From: Candidatus Omnitrophota bacterium
GTDB taxonomy: Bacteria; Omnitrophota; Gorgyraeia; Gygaellales; Profunditerraquicolaceae
Direction: 5' to 3'
Length of the DNA stretch: 64,000 bases
Assembly (NCBI GenBank): GCA_041650795.1
Contig: JBAZKK010000003.1
Coordinates: 2,386 to 66,385, forward strand
The notes under the pieces are model-generated. The model was given only the letters and a program-made list of their open reading frames with translations. It searched no databases and was not told the origin of the DNA. The position numbers were made by a program, and so were the translations under genes. The stretch's first letter is position 1. The number at the start of each line of letters is the position of its first letter. Positions 1,258 to 12,249 of this stretch are shown here, piece after piece.

Positions 1258-2459
1258 TGTCAATCCAGGTAATTGTAGAGAAATGCACCGGCTGTACGCT
1301 TTGTGTTAAGGCCTGTCCATTTGGCGCTATCAGCATGGCGGAGAAGAAGGCCAGGATAGACCTTAACAAATGCACCATTTGCGGGGCTTGCGTTCCAGCC
1401 TGTAAATTCAAGGCGATTTTGCTTGAGAAGACACCGGCTAAGTGCGAATTGCCGGACATCAAGGATTATAAAGGCATCTGGGTTTTTGTAGAGCAGAAAA
1501 ACGGCAAGGTGCAGTCCGTTTCCTATGAACTCTTAGGCAAGGCCCAGGAACTGGCCAAGAAGTTACATTGCCAGGTGAGCGGGGTTTTGATAGGCAATGC
1601 CATGGATGACCAGTTGGATGAACTGGGATGGAGAGGGGCGGATAATATTTATTTGGTGGAGGCCCCCGAGATAGCGAATTTCCAGGATGAACCTTATACC
1701 AATATCCTGGTAGAGCTGATTAAGAAATATAAGCCTGAGATCGTGCTCTGCGGAGCCACTGCTATCGGGCGTTCCCTGATTTCGCGGGTGGCTATAAACA
1801 TCAAGGCCGGCCTGACTGCCGATTGCACGGGGCTGGATATTGAGCCGGATAAGAAGATACTACTACAGACCCGCCCGGCTTTCGGAGGGAATATCATGGC
1901 GACCATCGTCAGCCCGAATTACCGGCCGCAGATGGCAACCGTTCGCCACAAGGTGATGCAGCCGATGGAGCCTGATAGGAAACGCAAGCCTAAGATCATC
2001 AGGGAGAAGTTTGGCAGCTCCTTTTACGCCTCCCGCACCAAGCTCCTGGATATAGTAGAGGAAATTGAATCCCTGGTAAATCTTGCTGAAGCGGATATTA
2101 TTGTTTCCGGAGGCCGCGGGATGGGTGGGCCGGAGAACTTTAAGATGTTGGAGGACCTGGCGCACGTATTAGGGGCGGCAGTAGGAGCTTCGCGCGCGGC
2201 AGTGGATTCGGGATGGAAGCCTTATTCGCATCAGGTAGGCCAGACCGGGCGCACCGTTGGCCCCAAGATCTACATTGCCTGTGGGATATCCGGTCAGATC
2301 CAGCATCTAGTGGGGATGCAATCCTCAAAGATTATCGTTGCTATCAATAAAGACCCCGAGGCCCCCATCTTTAAGGTCGCGACTTACGGCATAGTAGGCG
2401 ATCTCTTCCAGGTAGTCCCCGCCTTAACGAAGCGCTTCAAAGAAGTCCTCCGCAAATAA
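1257..2459 (+). CDS. etfA: electron transfer flavoprotein alpha subunit with N-terminal 2x[4Fe-4S] ferredoxin domain
   Basis: Two CxxCxxCxxxCP clusters (CTGCTLCVKACP, CTICGACVPACK) precede a canonical EtfA body (GGRGMG, SRAAVDSGW, QVGQTG, YIACGISGQIQH). Confidence 0.9.
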   Translation: MSIQVIVEKCTGCTLCVKACPFGAISMAEKKARIDLNKCTICGACVPACKFKAILLEKTPAKCELPDIKDYKGIWVFVEQKNGKVQSVSYELLGKAQELAKKLHCQVSGVLIGNAMDDQLDELGWRGADNIYLVEAPEIANFQDEPYTNILVELIKKYKPEIVLCGATAIGRSLISRVAINIKAGLTADCTGLDIEPDKKILLQTRPAFGGNIMATIVSPNYRPQMATVRHKVMQPMEPDRKRKPKIIREKFGSSFYASRTKLLDIVEEIESLVNLAEADIIVSGGRGMGGPENFKMLEDLAHVLGAAVGASRAAVDSGWKPYSHQVGQTGRTVGPKIYIACGISGQIQHLVGMQSSKIIVAINKDPEAPIFKVATYGIVGDLFQVVPALTKRFKEVLRK

Positions 2460-2583
2460 CAGAAACACTTTCCAATCTAAAGGGGAAACGTTTTTGTTCA
2501 CAATCGGGACAGTGTACATAAAAAAGAACACTGTCCCGAACAAAACGGAAAACGTTTCTGCTTTGGGACGGAAAGTGTTTCTG
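2460..2583. repeat. 124-bp nested palindrome (REP doublet / REPIN-like, LE+RE of the RAYT element without cargo)
   Basis: Outer arms cagaaacactttcc (2460..2473) and ggaaagtgtttctg (2570..2583) are perfect 14-bp inverted repeats. Inner hairpin is cgggacagtgt (2505..2515) / acactgtcccg (2528..2538). Middle module is gaaacgttt. The same modules recur at 9011..9066 and 9629..9686. Confidence 0.8.
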
Positions 2584-2660
2584 TTTGGGGAGAATTTGCA
2601 GTTTTTAGCAATATAAGAGAGAGAAAAGTATTCATATGTTAAAGAATGTTAAAATTTTCC

Positions 2661-2689
2661 TTGACAAAAGGCAAGGGTTTGTTTATAAT
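2661..2689 (+). promoter_or_regulatory. sigma70-type consensus promoter (TTGACA-N17-TATAAT) for the HTH-smc unit
   Basis: TTGACA at 2661..2666, exactly 17-nt spacer, TATAAT at 2684..2689. An A/T-rich tract (aaagaatgttaaaatttt) lies immediately upstream. Confidence 0.6.
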
Positions 2690-2726
2690 TACAACCAATG
2701 GAGAGAGAATGATTAACGGAGGTTTG

Positions 2727-2888
2727 ATGACCATAGAGGATTTAGCGGATTACCTTAAGGTTACGCGCCGCACTATCTACGAGTGGCTTAAGCAAAATAA
2801 GATACCGGCAGTGAAGCTCATAGGCCAGTGGCGTTTTCGTAAAGATAGAATTGATGCCTGGATTGAAAACCATTCTAAACTTCAATAA
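2727..2888 (+). CDS. small excisionase/MerR-superfamily helix-turn-helix (HTH_17-like) DNA-binding protein
   Basis: MTIEDLADYLKVTRRTIYEWLKQNKIPAVKLIGQWRFRKDRIDAWI matches the HTH_17 pattern. GGAGG lies 4 nt upstream of the ATG at 2727. The ORF-track start (2646) is upstream of the promoter; ATG 2709 is an alternative. Confidence 0.7.
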   Translation: MTIEDLADYLKVTRRTIYEWLKQNKIPAVKLIGQWRFRKDRIDAWIENHSKLQ

Positions 2889-2900
2889 AGGAGAGGCCGC

Positions 2901-5900
2901 ATGTATTTTAAGAGACTGGAGCTGGTAGGGTTTAAATCCTTCTGCAACAAAACCACTTTGCAATTTGAGCCTGGGGTTACCGCAGTTGTGGGCCCTAACG
3001 GCTGCGGCAAATGCCTGCATTATGATTCGCTGGTTACCTTAAGCGACGGTTCCCCGGTCAAAATCGGGGAATTAGTGGAGGCGGCTTTAAAAGAGGCGGG
3101 AGCGCCGGAAATATTAAACGACGGCTTGATGACTTCGGATAACCACCGCAATATTAAAATCCTTTCCCTGAACCCGGCTACGCTTAAGATTGAACCCAGG
3201 CCGGTATATGCCTTTATAAAGAGGAAGGCCCCGGATTATCTTCTGGAAGTCAAGACTAAATCCGGAAGAAAAGTCATCACCACCCACTACCATCCTTTTT
3301 TCAGCATTAAAGGCGGCCAGGTGATTGAGCTTAAGGCTGAGGAGCTCAAGGCAGGCACGAGGATTGCCGCTCCGAGGCTCATTAGGCAGCAAGAGGGCAG
3401 CCCTGATTTGGATTTATCGGGAATATTTAAAAAATTCAGCGCAGAGGATAACGTATATATTCCTTATTCAGAGGAATTTTCGGAATTTCTTTCTCAGGTC
3501 ACAGGCAGCAGTATTTCCCCTGCTCAGAGGACGGCAATAAAATCCTGCCGCAGCGGCCAGGCGATGAATATCGCCAACTTCAGCGCGTTGTTGGAGCAAA
3601 AGGGGATTAGAGAGGTCCCCGTTTTTGTAAGACGGCTTAAATCGCATAGCTGCGGGGAAATCAAGCTGCCGCGTAAGATGAGCCCCGCGATAGCCAGATT
3701 TCTCGGTTACCTTATTTCTGAAGGCAGGTCTACCAAAGAGAATCAAGTTTGGTTTGTGAATGGTGATAAGGATATCGTTGCGGATTTTACGGCCTGTGCC
3801 TACAGCGCATTTGAAGTAAAAGCCAAGGTTTTTAATTATAAACCTTGCGTCCAGGATGTCTTGATTTTCTCCAGCGCCTTGTGCGAATTCCTCCAGAAGG
3901 CCTTTATTTTCAATATCTCGGCCCCGTCAAGAGAAAAGGCGGTTCCGCCGCAGATATTCAGGTCTGATGAAAATATTATAAGAGAGTTTTTATCAACTCT
4001 CTTTGAAGGCGACGGCTATCTCTGTACCGATAAACAGAATAACAGCAAGAAGGCTTATTTTGAATATACCACCGCCTCCGGGGCATTGGCTTGCGGCGTC
4101 AGGAGCCTGTTGCTGCGCTTAGGGGTGCAGCCGGTAATCAGAAAAAAGCTGAAGGCAGCCACTAATACCAAGGAGAAAAACAAAAGGGTATATTATTCTG
4201 TTTATGTTTACGGGTTAGCTAATGCCAAACGCCTGGCTGAACTATTGCATTTTGTGGGCAAGAAATCCGCAAAACTCCAGGAGATTAAAAGACTGAAGTC
4301 TAAAAATAACCCCAATTTAGATTTAATCCCCGAGGTCAACGCCGTATTTAAAAAATTGACGCAACTGGCTGGCATCAATGTCAAAAAACTCAGGAAGACT
4401 TGCCCGAAGTTAGCTTCTTACTATGAGAACAGGTGTTTGCCCAGCCGCCAGGGGTTATTGGAGGCGCTGAGTATTGTTTCGGAGCACGGCAGGATTACCG
4501 GCTTAGCCGCAGCTTTATACCATTGCCTGAAAACCCTGGCCGTTTCGGATATTTACTGGGATGAAGTAACTAGTATTAAAAAAGTTTATTCAGAGGAATG
4601 GGTTTATGACCTTTCGGTATTAGAAACGCACAATTTTATTGCCGATGATATTATCGTTCATAACAGCAATATCTTTGATTCCATCCGCTGGGTATTGGGG
4701 GAGCAGTCTGTAAAGTCCCTGCGCGGCTCGGACATGCAGGATGTTATCTTTAACGGCACTGATAAAAAGGAGCCGTTAAGCATGGCCGAGGTGAGCGTTA
4801 CCTTTGATAATAAAACCAGGTTTTTCCCAGTTGACCATGACGAGATAATGATTTCCCGGCGCCTTTTCCGCTCCGGAGAAAGCGAGTACCTCCTGAACAA
4901 AACCCAGGTGCGCCTTAAGGACATCTCTGATTTATTGTTGGGTACCGGTATCGGAGCCGAGAGTTATTCCCTGGTGCCGCAGGGCAGGATAGATATGATT
5001 TTGAGTTCGCGGCCGGAGGACAGGCGCCTGGTATTTGACGAAGCCGCAGGCATAACTAAATATAAATCCCAGAAACGCGAGGCAATGCGTAAATTGGAAG
5101 AGACGGAGCAGAACCTCCTGCGCGTAAATGACATCATTACCGAGGTCAAGCGCCAGATCGGCTCCCTGGAGCGCCAGGCAAATAAAGCCAGGCGTTATAA
5201 GGAATTATTTGAGGAATTGAAAAACAAGGAGGTCAGGCTTGCCGTTTTGCAAAAGATAAGTTTCCTTAAGGACAGGGATGAGACCACGGCAGAGTTAAGC
5301 AGACTGCAGGAAAAAGAGTCCGAGGTCCTGAACGCCATCCAGGAGCAGGAGGTCAAGATTGCCGACCAGAAACAGGAAGCCAAGGCCCTTGAGGACGCTA
5401 TCAACAATATCAAGGGCAGGATCCTTAACCTCGATAACGGCATATCCCGCAGCCGCGAGCACATTACCATTTCCCGCGAGAGGATCAGCGAGCTTGAAGC
5501 CGGAAAGAAACGTATCGATGAGCAGATAGAACAGACCGCGGCGCGCATCAATGCCGATAAAGAAAAACTTGATGCCGTCAAGAAGGAATACAACGGGATA
5601 CAGAAGGAAATCGAGGAAAAGGGTGTTCTTCTGAAGGAAAAGGAAGGCGAGCTTAACAGCCTAGCAGTTGTTATAAAGCTGTCTTTGGATAATATTGCGG
5701 CAGCAAAGAAGAACCTTCTGGAACTGGCAGCCAAGGTCAGCAGCGCCAAGAATGAAGTTGCCGATTTTGCTGCCAAGGAACAGGTTTATCTGGCGCGCCA
5801 GAAAAGGCTGGAGGTAGAAAAAGCCAAGGTTAATGAAGAGAAGGCCGATGCGGAGTTAGCCTTCTCCACTATATCCCGGGAATTGTCAGGATTGCAGAGT

Positions 5901-7793
5901 AATTTTGCCGAGCTCGGCCTTAAGCTTAACGCAGCAAAGGAAGAATTGGGACAGGAAAAAATATCCCTTGAGCAGATCAATGCCTGCATTGCGGACCTTG
6001 AAAAGCAGAGGCTGGCGATGCAGTCCCAGAAAGAATTTCTGGAGGAGCTTAAATCCAAATACGATGATATAGGAGAATCCATGAGCGCCCTGCTCTATCT
6101 GGATAAGATGCCGGCAGAGAAGAGCTCGGGGATACTGATTAAGGTTAAAGAGTACCTGGAGCTTGCCGATGGCGATGGCGGGACAGCCGGCCATGCCAAT
6201 GTCAAGATATCCGGCGAGGCCAAGCCTATGGACCTGGACACCCAGAAGATTGGCGAACGCATTGCGCAGGTCGATATCAAGATAGCCAGCCTCAAAGAGA
6301 ATAAGGCTCATAAGCAGACACATATTGCGGAGCTCAAAAATAACATAGGGGCCCTGGAAGGTAATCTGCGTAGCGAGGAGATGGTTCTTGTTAATAAGCG
6401 TGCCCAACAGCAAACCGCAGAGGACGAGGTAAATAAAATCAAGAGCGAGGAAGAGATCATTGCGATAGAGCTTTCTGATATAACGGGAGCGCTATCCGGC
6501 CTCCAGGATGAACTGAACATCCGCAAAGCCTCCTTGGCTGCCTTAGAGGATGAGGAGAGGAGCGCGGAGGATTTGATTTCCGGAGAGCAGAATCGGATTA
6601 ATTCCAGCAATCAACTTAAAGAAGGCGTAATCGTAGCGATTACGCAGACCAGGGCAGAATTGGAAGCCCTTAATAAGCGCGTTAATTCCGACCAGGCAAC
6701 TATTGCGATACTGGAAGATACCTTCCGCCAGGACACGGAGGCGCTCGCCAGCCTTAATGAGCAAAAAGAGGCGGCTTTCGCTAAAGAGGCATCCCTGGAT
6801 GCCCAGATAAAAGATTTGGAAGAGGCGATTTTGAAGTCCGGGGAGGAGATCGAGAGTCAGAGGGCGGTCCTTAAGGATACCGAGGCCAGATTCGTAGCGG
6901 TCCTGGACGGCACTAGCGATATTACCCTGAAGATCGAGGCGGATAAGAAGGAAATAGATAGTATCAAAAGCAGGGTATATGAGTTTCAGATGCGTTCCAA
7001 GGAGGCGGAGTATAAGTACGGCGCCGTCAAGGAGAGGATATCGCAGGGATATAAGGTTGACCTGGATGCCGTTAGCGATGTTGTCTGTGAAGGCGATGAA
7101 GGTTCCTTAAGTGCAGAGATACAGGGGATGAAGGGAAAACTGGAGTCTTACGGTACGGTAAACCTGGTCGCCATTGAGGAATACGACGAGCTTAAGAAAC
7201 GTTATGATTTTCTCACCCAGCAGCAGGCGGATCTGTTGAATGCCAAGCAGTCACTGCATGAGGCAATACTAAAGCTTAACAAGACCACTAAGCACATGTT
7301 TCTGGAGACCTTCCAGAAGGTGGCTGCCGAGTTCCGTAATTACTTCCGGCTGCTCTTTAACGGGGGAGACGCCCAGGTCTTCTTGGTGGACGAACAGGAC
7401 CCCTTGGAGTGCGGCATTGAGATTATCTGCCGGCCGCCCGGGAAGAAACTTCAGAACGTGCTTTTGCTTTCGGGAGGCGAGAAATCCATGGCTGCCATAG
7501 CCCTGATTTTCGCCATATTCAAGATCAAACCGGCTCCGTTCTGCGTATTGGATGAGATTGATGCGGCTTTGGATGAAGCCAATGTTGACAGGTTCGGCAG
7601 GATGCTGCAGGAATTTACGAACGGTTCGCAATTCATCGTGATTACCCATAACAAAAAGACCATTGCCAACGCCGACGTGATGTATGGTATCACGATGGAG
7701 GAGTCTGGGGTATCCAAGATTATTTCAGTGAAGTTTTCGCAGGGTAAACCTTCTGTGCAACCCGAGGGAGTTCCGGTAGCAGAACCGGCTTAA
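2901..7793 (+). CDS. smc: chromosome segregation ATPase SMC, intein-containing precursor (1630 aa; 1079 aa after splicing)
   Basis: N-head MYFKRLELVGFKSF...GPNGCGK|intein|SNIFDSIRWVLGEQSVKSLRG. Long heptad-rich arms. C-head has signature LSGGEKSMAAIALIFAIF, Walker B FCVLDEIDAALD, and QFIVITHNK. Confidence 0.9.
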   Translation: MYFKRLELVGFKSFCNKTTLQFEPGVTAVVGPNGCGKCLHYDSLVTLSDGSPVKIGELVEAALKEAGAPEILNDGLMTSDNHRNIKILSLNPATLKIEPRPVYAFIKRKAPDYLLEVKTKSGRKVITTHYHPFFSIKGGQVIELKAEELKAGTRIAAPRLIRQQEGSPDLDLSGIFKKFSAEDNVYIPYSEEFSEFLSQVTGSSISPAQRTAIKSCRSGQAMNIANFSALLEQKGIREVPVFVRRLKSHSCGEIKLPRKMSPAIARFLGYLISEGRSTKENQVWFVNGDKDIVADFTACAYSAFEVKAKVFNYKPCVQDVLIFSSALCEFLQKAFIFNISAPSREKAVPPQIFRSDENIIREFLSTLFEGDGYLCTDKQNNSKKAYFEYTTASGALACGVRSLLLRLGVQPVIRKKLKAATNTKEKNKRVYYSVYVYGLANAKRLAELLHFVGKKSAKLQEIKRLKSKNNPNLDLIPEVNAVFKKLTQLAGINVKKLRKTCPKLASYYENRCLPSRQGLLEALSIVSEHGRITGLAAALYHCLKTLAVSDIYWDEVTSIKKVYSEEWVYDLSVLETHNFIADDIIVHNSNIFDSIRWVLGEQSVKSLRGSDMQDVIFNGTDKKEPLSMAEVSVTFDNKTRFFPVDHDEIMISRRLFRSGESEYLLNKTQVRLKDISDLLLGTGIGAESYSLVPQGRIDMILSSRPEDRRLVFDEAAGITKYKSQKREAMRKLEETEQNLLRVNDIITEVKRQIGSLERQANKARRYKELFEELKNKEVRLAVLQKISFLKDRDETTAELSRLQEKESEVLNAIQEQEVKIADQKQEAKALEDAINNIKGRILNLDNGISRSREHITISRERISELEAGKKRIDEQIEQTAARINADKEKLDAVKKEYNGIQKEIEEKGVLLKEKEGELNSLAVVIKLSLDNIAAAKKNLLELAAKVSSAKNEVADFAAKEQVYLARQKRLEVEKAKVNEEKADAELAFSTISRELSGLQSNFAELGLKLNAAKEELGQEKISLEQINACIADLEKQRLAMQSQKEFLEELKSKYDDIGESMSALLYLDKMPAEKSSGILIKVKEYLELADGDGGTAGHANVKISGEAKPMDLDTQKIGERIAQVDIKIASLKENKAHKQTHIAELKNNIGALEGNLRSEEMVLVNKRAQQQTAEDEVNKIKSEEEIIAIELSDITGALSGLQDELNIRKASLAALEDEERSAEDLISGEQNRINSSNQLKEGVIVAITQTRAELEALNKRVNSDQATIAILEDTFRQDTEALASLNEQKEAAFAKEASLDAQIKDLEEAILKSGEEIESQRAVLKDTEARFVAVLDGTSDITLKIEADKKEIDSIKSRVYEFQMRSKEAEYKYGAVKERISQGYKVDLDAVSDVVCEGDEGSLSAEIQGMKGKLESYGTVNLVAIEEYDELKKRYDFLTQQQADLLNAKQSLHEAILKLNKTTKHMFLETFQKVAAEFRNYFRLLFNGGDAQVFLVDEQDPLECGIEIICRPPGKKLQNVLLLSGGEKSMAAIALIFAIFKIKPAPFCVLDEIDAALDEANVDRFGRMLQEFTNGSQFIVITHNKKTIANADVMYGITMEESGVSKIISVKFSQGKPSVQPEGVPVAEPA
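3012..4664 (+). mobile_element. class-1 intein (551 aa) with LAGLIDADG homing endonuclease, inserted in the SMC Walker A P-loop
   Basis: Starts with Cys (CLHYDSLVTLSDGS). Block B is TTHYH (TxxH). Block F/G is VYDLSVLETHNFIADDIIVHN, followed by Ser+1. In-frame length is 1653 nt. Excision restores GPNGCGKSNIFDSIRW. Confidence 0.9.
3699..4016 (+). other. double-motif LAGLIDADG endonuclease core within the intein
   Basis: Motif 1 FLGYLISEG (3699..3725) and motif 2 FLSTLFEGDG (3987..4016) are about 96 aa apart, as in monomeric LAGLIDADG enzymes. Confidence 0.8.
6075..6260 (+). other. non-coiled mid-segment of SMC (mini-hinge, ~60 aa) in place of the canonical hinge domain
   Basis: ESMSALLYLDKMPAEKSSGILIKVKEYLELADGDGGTAGHANVKISGEAKPMDLDTQKIGERI is the only break between the two ~300-340 aa heptad arms. 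No GRATFLPL-type or repeated G-rich hinge motifs are visible. Confidence 0.6.
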
Positions 7794-8968
7794 GAAATGT
7801 AACAGCAGGTTTTATTTTTTCCCTGATCCTTGGCCTGATAAAGCGCCTGGTCGGACAGAAAGATTAATTCCGCAGCGCTGGAAGCGTTATCCGGGAACGA
7901 GGCCAAGCCGATGCTTACGGTAAGTTTTTTATTCGGAAGTATCTCTTCGTGCAGAAAGGAATGCTTTTCGATATCCTGCCTTAGGCGTTCCGCAATCAGA
8001 TAAACCTCATTTCTCTGGGACTCCGGCACTATAATCGCAAATTCCTCTCCGCCGTAACGGCAGACGAAGTCCATTTTACGGGAATGGCTTTTAAGCAGGC
8101 CGGCTAATTCTTTGAGGATTTTGTCTCCCGCCTGATGCCCCAGCGTGTCGTTATATATTTTAAAGTCGTCAATATCAATCATTATCAGGCTCAGGCGTCC
8201 CCGGGTAGCCTTGGCTTTTTCCAGCTCTTCCTGCAGAAGATAACGGAAGTAACCGTGGTTCCAGAGCTCGGTGAGGGAGTCTGAGTGGGCACGGACCACT
8301 GTTTTTTCATAAAGATGGGAATTATCGATGGCCAACCCGGCTTGGTTAGCCAGCATTATCAGCATGCGCATATCGTTTTTGTCAATGGGCTTTTTGGTGA
8401 TGAAATTATCGGCGATGATGATGCCGTTTACCCTGTCTTTGGCTTTTAATGGCACGACTGCCAGCTCGTCGGTTTTCAATAATTTTATTACGGTATCCGA
8501 TTGGTAGGAGACGATGCTTTCTTTTGTCAGGTGCAAGGGCATTCCTTCCAGGACAGTCAGCGCCAGCAATCCCCCCCTGGTATCATGCAGGGGAATCTTG
8601 AGAAGTTTAATCTCCTGGTTGAAGGTGGATTCCTGGGGGGAGGATTTTTGGTATGCGCTGATGAGGTCATCCATATCCATTTTGTGATGCTCTATGTGTT
8701 TCCAAATGTGGTTAGCGTCTTCACCGTTGTCCGGGCCGATACCCATCTTGCCTTCGATGATATTTTCCTTGTCATTTACCAAAAAGAGCATGGCGCGGTT
8801 GAACCCGAGTCCGGTGTGCGCAGTTACGCCTGTCAGAATGATGTATAGTATCTCATCCAGCTTTAAGGTAGTGCGCATAGCATTGGAAATCTCATAGAGT
8901 ATGCTAAGCTCGCGCTGGGCGCGTTCTAATTCGTTCTGGTATTCTTCCGGTTTTTTGGCGCCTTCCAT
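7790..8968 (-). CDS. GAF-domain diguanylate cyclase (GGDEF)
   Basis: C-terminal GGDEF domain has active site RYGGEEF and an RxxD I-site (RKMD) 5 residues upstream. The N-terminal region is GAF-like (LDEILYIILTGV...GFNRAMLFLV). Its stop overlaps the smc stop (shared TTAA at 7790..7793). Confidence 0.9.
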   Translation of the reverse strand: MEGAKKPEEYQNELERAQRELSILYEISNAMRTTLKLDEILYIILTGVTAHTGLGFNRAMLFLVNDKENIIEGKMGIGPDNGEDANHIWKHIEHHKMDMDDLISAYQKSSPQESTFNQEIKLLKIPLHDTRGGLLALTVLEGMPLHLTKESIVSYQSDTVIKLLKTDELAVVPLKAKDRVNGIIIADNFITKKPIDKNDMRMLIMLANQAGLAIDNSHLYEKTVVRAHSDSLTELWNHGYFRYLLQEELEKAKATRGRLSLIMIDIDDFKIYNDTLGHQAGDKILKELAGLLKSHSRKMDFVCRYGGEEFAIIVPESQRNEVYLIAERLRQDIEKHSFLHEEILPNKKLTVSIGLASFPDNASSAAELIFLSDQALYQAKDQGKNKTCCYIS

Positions 8969-8977
8969 AATGCTTAG

Positions 8978-9006
8978 AATTTAACATATTTTAAGCCTCC
9001 TGTCAA
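8978..9006 (-). promoter_or_regulatory. candidate promoter of the GGDEF gene (TTGACA-N17-TAAATT on the minus strand)
   Basis: Minus-strand TTGACA = 9006..9001, 17-nt spacer, TAAATT = 8983..8978. Only 9 nt separate it from the ATG (8968) and there is no SD, implying a near-leaderless mRNA. Confidence 0.35.
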
Positions 9007-9010
9007 CCTA

Positions 9011-9066
9011 CAGAAACACTTTCCAATCCATAGCAGAAACGTTTTCCGAGCCAAACCGGACAGTGT
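9011..9066. repeat. REP-type left end (modules 1, 2 and left arm of module 3)
   Basis: cagaaacactttccaatc (9011..9028) is 18/18 identical to 2460..2477. cagaaacgttttcc (9034..9047) is the exact reverse complement of 2547..2560. cggacagtgt lies at 9057..9066. Confidence 0.75.
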
Positions 9067-9135
9067 TATTTGATAAAAATTTTTGTTAGGTATATATTGT
9101 TTGCGCGTCTATTAAAGCAAAAGGGGGTGATTTTT

Positions 9136-9621
9136 ATGTCAGCGCGCTCAAAGATATTATTGAAAAACGGATGTTACCATCTAACTGCCAGAGGCAATCA
9201 AAAACAACGAATTTTCTTAGATGATCAAGACTACGCGGCATTCGTCGGGCGTTTAAAAAAATACAAAAGAAGATATGGTTTAAAGCTTTACGGTTTTTGC
9301 CTGATGCCGAACCATTTACATCTCATCGCTGAATTTGACGAACCGCAATGGTTATCTAAATTCATGCAGGTGATTTTACGGTCTTACACGAGTTATTTCA
9401 ACAAAAAATATAATAAAGTTGGCCATTTGTGGCAAGGCAGATTCAACAGCAGACTTATTACAAGGGATGCTTATTTGCTGGATTGTTTAAATTATGTCGA
9501 ATTCAATCCGGTAAGAGCTGGTATAGCCAGGAGCGCGGGAGATTATAAGTGGAGTAGCTATAAAGAACGAGCGCTCGAAAAAACAGCGGATTTTCTGTTA
9601 ATTGACTCTCTTGAACTTTAA
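9136..9621 (+). CDS. REP-associated tyrosine transposase-like protein (Y1_Tnp / IS200-like HUH family)
   Basis: HUH motif in LMPNHLHLIAE. Motif GHLWQGRFNSRLI. Catalytic-Tyr motif LNYVEFNPVRAGIA...YKWSSY. RBS aaggggg precedes the ATG at 9136; the ORF-track start at 9070 is probably too far upstream. Confidence 0.85.
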   Translation: MSARSKILLKNGCYHLTARGNQKQRIFLDDQDYAAFVGRLKKYKRRYGLKLYGFCLMPNHLHLIAEFDEPQWLSKFMQVILRSYTSYFNKKYNKVGHLWQGRFNSRLITRDAYLLDCLNYVEFNPVRAGIARSAGDYKWSSYKERALEKTADFLLIDSLEL

Positions 9622-9628
9622 TAATTAA

Positions 9629-9686
9629 AGACACTTTCCCGATTGCGTTGGAAAACGTTTCCCGATTGTATTGGAAAGTGTTTCTG
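9629..9686. repeat. REP-type right end (degenerate module 1 forward, module 2 reverse, module 1 reverse)
   Basis: ggaaaacgtttc (9650..9661) equals 2547..2558. ggaaagtgtttctg (9673..9686) is 14/14 identical to 2570..2583. There is an internal direct repeat tttcccgattg x2 (9635..9645, 9658..9668). Confidence 0.75.
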
Positions 9687-9698
9687 ATTATTAAATAA

Positions 9699-9727
9699 TT
9701 GACAGGGGCAAGGGGGTGGGATATAAT
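9699..9727 (+). promoter_or_regulatory. sigma70-type consensus promoter (TTGACA-N17-TATAAT) upstream of recA
   Basis: TTGACA at 9699..9704, 17-nt G-rich spacer ggggcaagggggtggga, TATAAT at 9722..9727. It lies 12 nt from the RAYT right end. Confidence 0.6.
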
Positions 9728-9786
9728 AAAAGACTCTATTTGAACGAGTTTCGGCTAAAATTCAAATTTGCGGACCGGAGGTAATT

Positions 9787-10812
9787 ATGTCAACCGTTGA
9801 GAAGAAAAAAGAGGATGCAAAGAATATTTCAGATAGGCATAAGGCGCTTGAATTGGCTTTGATGCAGATTGAAAAGCAGTTCGGCAAGGGCTCGATTATG
9901 AAGCTGGGGGGGGATGTCAAGGTCAACGTAGAGGCAATCCCTACTGGCGCCTTGACCCTGGATTGGGCGTTGGGGGTAGGAGGACTGCCTCGCGGAAGGG
10001 TAATCGAGGTTTTCGGGCCGGAAGCTTCCGGAAAAACCACCCTGACTTTGACCGTAATACGCGAAATCCAGAAAAAAGGCGGGGTAGCAGCTTTTATTGA
10101 TGCGGAGCATGCCTTTGACTCTACCTATGCCAAGATTATAGGCGTCAATCTCGAAGACCTTTTAATATCCCAGCCGGATACCGGCGAGCAGGCCCTGGAG
10201 ATTGCGGAAACCCTGGTGCGCTCCAACGCCGTGGACGTAGTAGTAATTGATTCCGTGGCTGCCTTGACCCCGCGCGCCGAGATCGAGGGGGAAATGGGTG
10301 ATTCGCACGTGGGCTTGCAGGCGCGCCTGATGTCGCAGGCACTGCGTAAACTTACCGCTGCCATAAGCAAGTCGCGCACCTGCGTGATTTTTATCAATCA
10401 GATACGCGAGAAGATCGGGGTGATGTTTGGTTCTCCCGAAACTACCCCCGGCGGCCGTGCGTTAAAATTCTACTCTTCAGTGCGCCTGGACGTAAGAAAG
10501 ATAGCTACCCTGAAGGCCGCGGATATGGTCATCGGCAACAGGGTCAGGGTCCGGGTAGTCAAGAACAAGGTCGCCCCGCCTTTCAAGGAGGGTGAGTTTG
10601 AAATACTGCATAACGAAGGCATTTCCAAGACCGGAAGCATAATCGACGCCGGTATAAACCTCAGTGTAATCGAAAAATCCGGCACTTGGCTTTCTTACGC
10701 CACCACTAAGCTTGGGCAGGGCCGCGACGCCGCCATCAAAACCCTGAAAGAGCAGCCTAAGCTGCAGGATGAGATTGAAAAGGAAATCCGGAAAAAAATT
10801 ACCTTAGGTTAA
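9787..10812 (+). CDS. recA: recombinase RecA
   Basis: [14 protein letters not shown], Walker [36 protein letters not shown]. Confidence 0.97.
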
Positions 10813-10830
10813 CAGGAGGCAAGAGGCAAA

Positions 10831-12249
10831 ATGAGAGTTAGGGGTATACTGCTGATCATGGCCTTAGCAGCAGGCGTAAGCGCAGGAGTATGGGAAACAG
10901 GAAGGGCTGCGCAGCCAGAAACCCTGCCCCAGGCAAGCGGCATTGAGGATGCAGTGGTAAACGTTGCCGCCAAGGTAGGCAAGGCAGTGGTTTCCATCAG
11001 CACCGAACATAAGATCCCTTCCGATAAAAATAAAAGGGTGTATTTTAATTCCCCGTTCGGAGATGAGGAATTTTTCCGCCGTTTCTTCGATGAATTCTTC
11101 GGCGATATGCCTGAGCGTGATTACCGCCAGGTGGCGCTGGGCTCCGGCGTAATCGTTGACCCGCAGGGTTACATCCTTACCAATGAGCACGTAGTCGAGG
11201 ATGCCGATAAGATTACGGTCACTCTTCCGGATGGAAGGGAATTCAAGGGAGAGGTGAAAGGCCGGGATCCCCGTTCAGATCTTGCTATTATAAAAATAGA
11301 TGCCAATAACCTTTCGGTGGTGCAGTTAGGGGAATCGGAGAGCCTTAAGATCGGACAGTGGGTCCTGGCAATCGGAAATCCTTTTGGCTTTGCTATGCAG
11401 AATCCGGAGCCTACGGTTACGGTCGGGGTAGTCAGCGCCCTGCACCGTTCGCTCGGTAGGAGCATCTCGCGGGAGCGCGATTACAATGATTTAATCCAGA
11501 CTGACGCTGCAATTAACCCCGGCAATTCCGGAGGCCCCCTGGTGAATCTCAAGGGAGAGGTGGTCGGAATTAATGCCGCTATATTCTCCACCAACGGAGG
11601 ATACCAGGGGATAGGTTTTGCCATCCCCATCAATACTGCCAGGAGGATAATCTCGCGGCTTATTGAAGGCAAAAAGATTGTTTACGGCTGGCTTGGTATA
11701 ACGGTGCAGGATATGTCAGTGGATTTAGCAAAACACCTGGGCCTTAAGGATAAAAACGGAGCCTTAATAGCAACCGTGCTTCCAGCAGGTCCGGCGGAAA
11801 AAGCAGGCATGAAAGAAGGGGATATCATCCGTAAATTCGATAACACTGATGTCAATAACGTAAGGGAGCTTTTGAGCCTTGTCGGCAGGGCCGAGCCGGG
11901 ACGCAAGGTAAAGGCAACACTGCTGCGCAATAATAAGGAGCTAACCTTGAACGTCGAGGTGGGAGAGAGGCCGGATAACCTTGAGGAATCGGATGCCGGC
12001 GCCACCCGGAACAAAAGCAAAAAGTGGCGCGGGCTTGAGGTTTCCGAGTCGCAGAAAGGGCTGGTTATTTCTGAGATTGAGCAGGGCAGCGCCGCGGATG
12101 ATGCGGGTCTGGTAGCCGGAGAGGTGATCCAGGAAATTGATAAGCAGCCCGTTAAAACCCTTTCGGATTACCAGAAGGCCATTAAAGGGGTCAAGGGAGA
12201 TTGCCTTGTTAAGACCTCGCGCGGCTATTTCCTTATCAAGGGTGACTGA
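10831..12249 (+). CDS. htrA: periplasmic serine endoprotease HtrA/DegP family (trypsin domain + 2 PDZ)
   Basis: Signal-like N-terminus. Catalytic triad context TNEHVV / DLAIIK / GNSGGPL. Two PDZ-like segments follow. Confidence 0.9.
   Translation: MRVRGILLIMALAAGVSAGVWETGRAAQPETLPQASGIEDAVVNVAAKVGKAVVSISTEHKIPSDKNKRVYFNSPFGDEEFFRRFFDEFFGDMPERDYRQVALGSGVIVDPQGYILTNEHVVEDADKITVTLPDGREFKGEVKGRDPRSDLAIIKIDANNLSVVQLGESESLKIGQWVLAIGNPFGFAMQNPEPTVTVGVVSALHRSLGRSISRERDYNDLIQTDAAINPGNSGGPLVNLKGEVVGINAAIFSTNGGYQGIGFAIPINTARRIISRLIEGKKIVYGWLGITVQDMSVDLAKHLGLKDKNGALIATVLPAGPAEKAGMKEGDIIRKFDNTDVNNVRELLSLVGRAEPGRKVKATLLRNNKELTLNVEVGERPDNLEESDAGATRNKSKKWRGLEVSESQKGLVISEIEQGSAADDAGLVAGEVIQEIDKQPVKTLSDYQKAIKGVKGDCLVKTSRGYFLIKGD

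Follow-up and report, generated by a model that had tools for sequence, protein, structure and literature searches.

How a bacterium may obtain a working SMC protein from a gene whose ATP-binding loop is split by 551 foreign codons is the question raised by the smc locus of the window analysed here, a 64,000-nucleotide stretch (positions 2,386 to 66,385) of contig JBAZKK010000003.1 from a Candidatus Omnitrophota bacterium (GenBank assembly GCA_041650795.1). In a preliminary description of this DNA, the in-frame segment 3012..4664 was read as a 551-residue intein carrying LAGLIDADG motifs and splitting the SMC P-loop. Translation together with Pfam and NCBIfam matches gives exactly these coordinates, and we conclude with high confidence that the segment is a bona fide, probably active and mobile class-1 intein that interrupts the Walker A P-loop in a bacterial-type SMC of this Omnitrophota bacterium.

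The interrupted smc gene and its natural empty allele

Around the two junctions (marked by arrows throughout), the precursor translated from 2901..7793 reads ...VVGPNGCGK↓CLHYDSLVTL...DDIIVHN↓SNIFDSIRWVLGEQS, and its general layout is MYFKRLELVGFKSF...VTAVVGPNGCGK ↓ CLHYDSLVTLSDG...THNFIADDIIVHN ↓ SNIFDSIRWVLGEQS. An exact look-up showed it to be identical to the NCBI protein MFA5114596.1. The host is a bacterial-type SMC: the whole precursor scores 838 bits against the equivalog model TIGR02168 (SMC_prok_B; curated cut-off 567), the flanks match Pfam SMC_N with 232 bits, and the head domains are unambiguously SMC when aligned with the Bacillus subtilis Smc head (3zgx). Removal of the insert leaves a protein of 1079 aa, compared with about 1186 in B. 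subtilis, and residues 1-217 of this product align without gaps to residues 1-217 of the B. subtilis head (E 6.9e-75). As the stretch VTAVVGPNG(C/S)GKSNI is continuous in this alignment, the intein must lie between Walker A Lys37 and Ser38, and the earlier proposal that its deletion restores a canonical SMC P-loop is borne out.

The second line of evidence comes from a natural intein-free allele. The protein P0171 (MFA4984031.1), a member of the 90%-identity cluster of MFA5114596.1, is 1079 aa long, equal in length to the predicted spliced product, and is 92.0% identical to it without any gap. At the DNA level, the syntenic contig L014 (Table 1) carries an smc gene with 88.2% nucleotide identity to that of the window. 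By blastn, window 2636-3010 corresponds to L014 5410-5784 and window 4662-10923 to L014 5783-12040, with the break in the alignment exactly at 3010/4662. The genes on L014 follow the order acyl-CoA dehydrogenase, electron transfer flavoprotein (ETF) beta, ETF alpha-ferredoxin, HTH_17, smc, GGDEF, Y1 transposase-like gene, recA and alaS, in synteny with the window. Since this empty locus is exact and colinear with the occupied one, these two close relatives are cleanly polymorphic for the presence of the 1653-nt segment. The preliminary description had named a lack of contiguity in intein-free SMCs across 3011/4665 as an observation that would speak against an intein; contiguity was found twice, in the 3zgx head and in P0171/L014.

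The target site reconstituted from the window reads gcagttgtgggccctaacggctgcggcaaa↓agcaatatctttgattccatccgctgggta, L014 carries the natural empty site gtaggccctaacggctgcggcaag↓agtaatatctttgattccatccgttgggta, and the consensus is ...ggccctaacggctgcggcaaR↓agYaatatctttgattcc...; the codons flanking the junction in L014 (aag↓agt) differ from those of the window target (aaa↓agc) by synonymous changes alone. Co-conversion tracts were also sought in the nucleotide identity along the exteins of the window and L014. Identity is 93-95% near the junction, which is uninformative because the conserved head domain gives high identity anyway.

That assembly or binning had joined an unrelated intein to smc is vanishingly improbable. 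Mis-assembly across related inteins does occur, as indicated by the protein P0025, a clear SMC/intein/GyrB chimera. However, an assembly artefact is ruled out by L015, an independent contig assembled from a different sample (JGI 3300037067), which matches window 2348-5250 with 100% identity; moreover, the junctions are in frame on both sides and the same architecture is present in seven other genomes.

Anatomy, predicted fold and proposed splicing

The sequence anatomy of the segment (Table 1) is that of a class-1 intein. The hallmarks listed in the preliminary description (Cys1, the TxxH block, two LAGLIDADG motifs, the terminal His-Asn and Ser+1) are all present where it placed them, together with the block F Asp. 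The profile searches that it had suggested returned Pfam Intein_splicing (98 bits, E 5.5e-28, intein residues 9-551), Pfam LAGLIDADG_3 (52 bits, E 7.7e-14), TIGR01445 intein_Nterm (residues 1-97, E 7e-19) and TIGR01443 intein_Cterm (residues 530-551), and as judged from these sequence comparisons the intein matches are far beyond chance. Conservation was scored on an alignment of 22 family members. In addition to the invariant residues of blocks A and B, block F (W530-V-Y-D533-L) is invariant and H550 and N551 are conserved in at least 90% of the sequences, while the +1 residue is Ser in every homolog whose C-junction is present, except for Thr in P0037. The two LAGLIDADG motifs are in frame and 96 residues apart, and each ends with a catalytic acidic residue, Glu237 in the first and Asp334 in the second; Asp334 and the flanking glycines are conserved in at least 90% of the members, and Glu237 in all sequences but the distant member P0023.

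An AlphaFold2 (AF2) model of the intein, built on the same alignment, has a mean predicted local distance difference test (pLDDT) score of 90.9 and a predicted template modelling (TM) score of 0.89. In this model, an N-terminal beta-rich lobe (residues 1-122) and a C-terminal beta lobe (512-551) enclose two alpha-beta-beta-alpha-beta-beta-alpha halves (about 222-412), the pseudo-symmetric arrangement of a double-motif LAGLIDADG enzyme. The predicted HINT fold superposes on solved inteins, for example on 6rpq with a root-mean-square deviation (rmsd) of 1.2 Å. Two further helical segments are also confidently modelled; if they are analogous to the accessory domains of PI-PfuI and PI-PkoII, they may contribute to DNA recognition.

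Table 1. Features of the smc locus and its surroundings. Coordinates refer to the window unless another contig is named.
Feature	Coordinates	Strand	Description
smc precursor ORF (open reading frame)	2901..7793	+	1630 aa plus stop; N-extein, intein and C-extein (ORF list, translation)
N-extein	2901..3011	+	37 aa, ending with Walker A ...GPNGCGK; Lys37 is -1 and Cys35 is -3
Intein, class 1 with LAGLIDADG homing endonuclease	3012..4664	+	1653 nt, in frame, 551 codons/residues
N-terminal splicing (HINT) lobe	3012..3377	+	intein residues 1-122; blocks A and B
Block A Cys1	3012..3014	+	invariant in 22 homologs
Block B TxxH, T91-H-Y-H94	3282..3293	+	T91 and H94 invariant in 22 homologs
Helical segments of the intein	3384..3671, 4254..4541	+	residues about 125-220 and 415-510; not part of the HINT or LAGLIDADG cores
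LAGLIDADG endonuclease core	3675..4247	+	intein residues about 222-412; Pfam LAGLIDADG_3
LAGLIDADG motif 1, FLGYLISEG	3699..3725	+	Glu237 at 3720..3722
LAGLIDADG motif 2, FLSTLFEGDG	3987..4016	+	Asp334 at 4011..4013
C-terminal splicing lobe	4545..4664	+	intein residues 512-551; block F WVYDL with Asp533, block G ...IIVHN
Terminal His550-Asn551	4659..4664	+	end of block G
C-extein	4665..7793	+	1042 aa plus stop; first residue Ser+1 (4665..4667) is Walker A Ser38 of mature SMC
Intein-free smc allele	L014 5675..8914 (ENA ERZ27247363 k141_2093507)		close relative, syntenic
HTH_17 (excisionase/MerR-like) gene	2646..2888	+	80 aa, 12 nt upstream of smc
IS200-like Y1 transposase gene, single	9070..9621	+	between the GGDEF gene and recA
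recA	9787..10812	+	341 aa, intein-free, about 2 kb downstream of smc

According to established intein chemistry, we infer the following course of events. The smc gene would be translated as the 1630-aa precursor, in which 551 foreign residues part Lys37 from Ser38; with the phosphate-binding lysine so separated from its neighbour, the precursor would be unable to form the Walker A loop. The earlier suggestion that it cannot bind ATP before splicing is thus reasonable, and both the SMC ATPase and Smc-dependent chromosome organisation should need splicing. The intein would fold first, after which Cys1 would perform an N-S acyl shift, Ser+1 would attack the resulting thioester (trans-esterification), Asn551 would cyclise with the assistance of His550, and an O-N shift would generate a native peptide bond. 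This pathway is expected to release the 551-aa intein and to leave a 1079-aa SMC whose GPNGCGKSN loop is intact.

A contrary possibility is a dead insertion, with an intein incapable of splicing and an smc gene that is inactivated or a pseudogene. The feature that might hint at such decay is the unusually small SMC hinge: the Pfam SMC_hinge model (PF06470) does not match the central region of the protein even at E<=1, whereas it reaches 88.8 bits in P0122, a more distant Omnitrophota SMC. Nevertheless, the small hinge is conserved and is shared by intein-free members of the clade, which speaks against decay, and the frame runs uninterrupted through 1630 codons with all splicing residues intact, the precursor ORFs are intact in eight independent genomes, and the SMC equivalog model is matched far above its cut-off. 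A dead insertion is therefore very improbable. The position expected for the hinge is occupied by a clade-conserved, beta-rich segment of about 60 residues (6060..6239 in the C-extein, YDDIGESMSALLYLDKMPAEKSSGILIKVK...ISGEAKPMDLD) between two long coiled-coil helices, the core of which was modelled by AF2 at low confidence (pLDDT about 50). This miniaturised hinge may be more unusual than the intein itself.

Splicing might also be conditional. In a domesticated intein of this type, a disulfide between Cys35 (-3) and Cys1, or contacts between extein and intein, would gate splicing and make SMC activation responsive to redox state or stress. The N-junction C-G-K↓C does have the CxxC spacing of an engineered redox trap and of the native Pab MoaA disulfide, as described in PMC3922620; Cys occupies position -3 in 31 of the 38 intein-bearing alleles; and conditionally splicing P-loop inteins are documented for RadA and DnaB (PMC4513877, PMC6195587). 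On the other hand, Cys-3 is a native P-loop residue of Omnitrophota, present in 109 of 115 intein-free alleles, and is if anything rarer in the intein-bearing ones, seven of which have Ser or Thr. Since the residue is already common where no intein exists, there is no sign of co-adaptation, and co-adaptation as a redox trap was rejected on this ground. A 92%-identical relative lives without the intein, implying that it is dispensable. Overall, a conditional intein appears improbable, and slightly more so the specific version in which it acts as a post-translational gate, with a disulfide or extein-intein contacts holding SMC ATP-blind under oxidative or other stress and releasing it on recovery. 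If such a gate existed, the loading of bacterial condensin would be redox- or stress-conditional in these Omnitrophota.

Family distribution and probable mobility

The nearest alleles of the intein, which the preliminary description had proposed to look for, sit by the dozen in SMC and at the same site. About 38 proteins combine SMC_N or AAA_23 with Intein_splicing, at 35-63% identity. Most of them come from metagenome-assembled genomes (MAGs) of Omnitrophota and others from MAGs labelled Blastocatellia, Rokubacteria and Micrarchaeota, and all 38 share one insertion site, GK↓C...HN↓(S/T)N. The Micrarchaeota-labelled member, P0019, has an archaeal-type SMC extein (183 bits for TIGR02169 vs 91 bits for TIGR02168), so that the intein family spans both prokaryotic domains at a single site. 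A scan of GTDB species representatives, which used exact peptide words of the query and hence found close relatives alone, identified eight Omnitrophota genomes (L001-L008, one of them labelled Planctomycetales) in addition to three unrelated weak matches (L009-L011); complete, uninterrupted precursor ORFs of 1638-1699 codons were present in seven of the eight.

Intein-free SMCs are far from rare in the same lineage, as a search with the spliced N-terminal half returned hundreds of Omnitrophota sequences at 40-79% identity. In a neighbour-joining tree of head sequences (about 200 residues; 115 free and 19 occupied alleles; no support values), the 19 occupied alleles are scattered singly among the free ones. 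The window and L001 together are sister to the free allele P0078 (78.6% identity), and L002 pairs with the free allele P0083 (83.4%). Among the eight full-length loci, pairwise identities of heads and inteins are essentially uncorrelated (r = 0.15): L004 and L007 have inteins 77% and heads 75% identical, and L002 and L008 have inteins only 54% identical with heads 85% identical. The intein also differs in base composition from its surroundings, its GC content being 45.9% vs 50.0-53.9% in the exteins and ten neighbouring genes, and that at third codon positions (GC3) 53% vs 57-66%. Within the family, P0037 and P0038 are mini-inteins (288 and 233 aa) at the shared SMC site from which the LAGLIDADG domain has been deleted, and in P0023 the acidic residue of motif 1, equivalent to Glu237, is gone; these proteins are decay stages of the homing cycle. 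Judged from sequence comparison, scatter, incongruence, GC and decay match a homing element which moves among lineages and is then lost, unlike a fixed, vertically inherited domain. Once freed by splicing, the double-motif LAGLIDADG endonuclease is expected to cleave smc alleles that lack an intein at the reconstituted site, and recombinational repair would copy the intein into the cut allele. Homing of this kind would explain why the intein, always at the same site, is distributed patchily and incongruently with its hosts across Omnitrophota and beyond.

A splicing-competent intein with an inactive endonuclease, whose patchiness reflects vertical inheritance with repeated precise loss, is possible and considerably less likely than a mobile one. 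It would fit the endonuclease decay seen in P0037, P0038 and P0023 and the fact that L001 is the nearest relative of the window in both intein and extein. Against it, the window and all eight full-length Omnitrophota loci retain Glu237, Asp334 and the motif glycines, the divergence of intein and host is uncorrelated, and the occurrence of the family in the archaeal-type SMC P0019 requires horizontal transfer. An ectopic jump between the P-loops of different hosts was also considered and found no support, most of the nearest non-SMC relatives (DnaB inteins) being located at the H4 site.

Several points weigh against an active, mobile intein. The lower GC content could be due to amino-acid composition rather than foreign origin, and the patchiness is only qualitative because the neighbour-joining tree behind it was made quickly from about 200 residues and carries no support values. 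Among the database homologs, many come from short contigs on which the gene was called only in part. No Pfam family matched the two helical segments (about 125-220 and 415-510), which have no assigned function, and our literature search found no experimental splicing or DNA cleavage for any family member.

The SMC/intein/GyrB protein mentioned above, P0025, comes from a Rokubacteria-labelled MAG and consists of an SMC N-extein, an SMC-type intein and a GyrB/ParE C-extein (residues 600-638 match gyrB models). It probably arose when related inteins of one genome were mis-assembled, or possibly by a real recombination between inteins. Annotation of the family is also irregular. Contig L015 was binned as Candidatus Paceibacterota, and it is the closest GTDB genome, L001, that bears the Planctomycetales label. 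MFA5114596.1, a full SMC precursor, is named merely "LAGLIDADG family homing endonuclease" in NCBI, and other members are named "LAGLIDADG family homing endonuclease", "AAA family ATPase" or "hypothetical", most of them being truncated gene calls. With a whole SMC under the name of a homing endonuclease and many calls truncated, these genomes may be recorded as lacking SMC.

With regard to the neighbourhood, the HTH_17-smc pairing is also found in L013, L014 and L015 and was fused by gene calling in P0029; the HTH_17 gene seems to encode a small, conserved DNA-binding protein that partners or regulates smc in Omnitrophota. As L014 has the Y1 gene at the corresponding position, this gene is probably domesticated or associated with repetitive extragenic palindromic (REP) elements rather than a recent insertion. 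RecA is a classic intein host. Among the 20 neighbouring proteins scanned no intein was detected, and recA, rpoB, rpoC and alaS are of normal size. In L014, ETF-alpha and HTH_17 are separated by a pilin-like gene (4893..5285) that the window lacks, and recX-like genes stand where the window has htrA (10831..12249).

Relation to known inteins

The preliminary description had considered SMC an unfamiliar intein host. For the protein family as a whole this does not hold, since archaeal SMC ATPase is already listed as a host in a survey (Novikova et al. 2016, Mol Biol Evol, PMC4760082) and dozens of homologs are found in public MAGs; the literature search revealed no publication describing such an intein in a bacterial or, specifically, an Omnitrophota SMC. 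NCBIfam models of intein-containing proteins exist for several hosts, and none of them matched for SMC. P-loop inteins and archaeal SMC inteins are known and the sequence is public. The intein of the window is real, tidy and unsurprising to a specialist. It does not change the understanding of intein mechanism. Its occupied allele and the 92%-identical, syntenic empty allele nevertheless form an experimentally attractive natural pair.

In a Foldseek search of the PDB, the top matches were TliVMA (7qss, E 6.6e-27, target TM 0.82), PI-PkoII (2cw7), PhoVMA (7qst), PI-PfuI (1dq3) and PI-SceI. After these endonuclease-containing inteins came mini-inteins (6rpq) and then free-standing LAGLIDADG enzymes, including I-Tsp061I, I-DmoI and I-OnuI. 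As in the window, 7qss, 7qst, 2cw7 and 1dq3 have a HINT domain split by a double-motif LAGLIDADG enzyme plus accessory segments (E 6.6e-27 to 5.8e-19, target TM 0.68-0.84), whereas their sequence identity is just 15-20% and their hosts are V-ATPase, DNA polymerase and ribonucleotide reductase. The window intein is longer than TliVMA/PhoVMA, PI-PkoII and PI-PfuI and has two extra helical segments. By sequence, V-ATPase inteins are the closest solved relatives of the endonuclease. Those of the splicing domain are the MCM mini-inteins PhoCDC21-1 and PabCDC21-1 (6rpq and 6rpp, E 9.7e-24 and 1.2e-18); the N-terminal lobe shares 38% identity with PhoCDC21-1 at the rmsd given above over 124 columns, and the C-terminal lobe aligns with the C-termini of the DnaB and CDC21 mini-inteins. 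The CDC21 inteins differ in having no endonuclease domain and another host, archaeal MCM.

The nearest non-SMC relatives by sequence are inteins of DnaB helicase (about 24-32% identity), which in contrast to the SMC family are mostly found at the H4 site (HN↓SIEQDAD) and not in the P-loop; P0044 and P0047 alone have the GK↓C...HN↓ST arrangement. The RadA intein site lies within the P-loop, with Thr at +1. As the preliminary description had noted, the P-loop of DNA-transaction ATPases is a documented hot spot for inteins (DnaB-b, MCM-a, RFC-a and many others; PMC4760082, PMC4513877). Like the intein of the window, that of Pyrococcus horikoshii RadA and those in other P-loops (DnaB-b, MCM-a, RFC-a) interrupt the Walker A motif of a DNA-transaction ATPase, and their hosts are expected to be inactive before splicing. 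The RadA intein differs as a mini-intein without endonuclease from a hyperthermophilic archaeon whose conditional splicing has been shown experimentally, while the window intein is known from sequence and model.

In the redox-trap inteins, namely the engineered one with Cys-3 and Cys1 (Ssp DnaE, CPGC) and the native Pyrococcus abyssi MoaA intein, a disulfide reversibly blocks splicing, according to the review PMC3922620, which cites Callahan et al. 2011. Their Cys-3/Cys1 spacing is identical to that of CGK↓C in the window, where control by a disulfide or by redox state would be hypothetical and Cys-3 is already present in free alleles.

Archaeal SMC inteins share the host protein family. In the archaeal-type SMC P0019, a 548-aa intein occupies precisely the same site, GK↓C...HN↓SN, and is 44% identical to the window intein in the A1 alignment and 42% by BLASTP. 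The host in the window is instead a bacterial-type SMC (TIGR02168). Bacterial SMC (condensin) therewith joins the ATPases that have P-loop inteins, and the bias of inteins towards replication, recombination and repair is extended to chromosome organisation in Bacteria.

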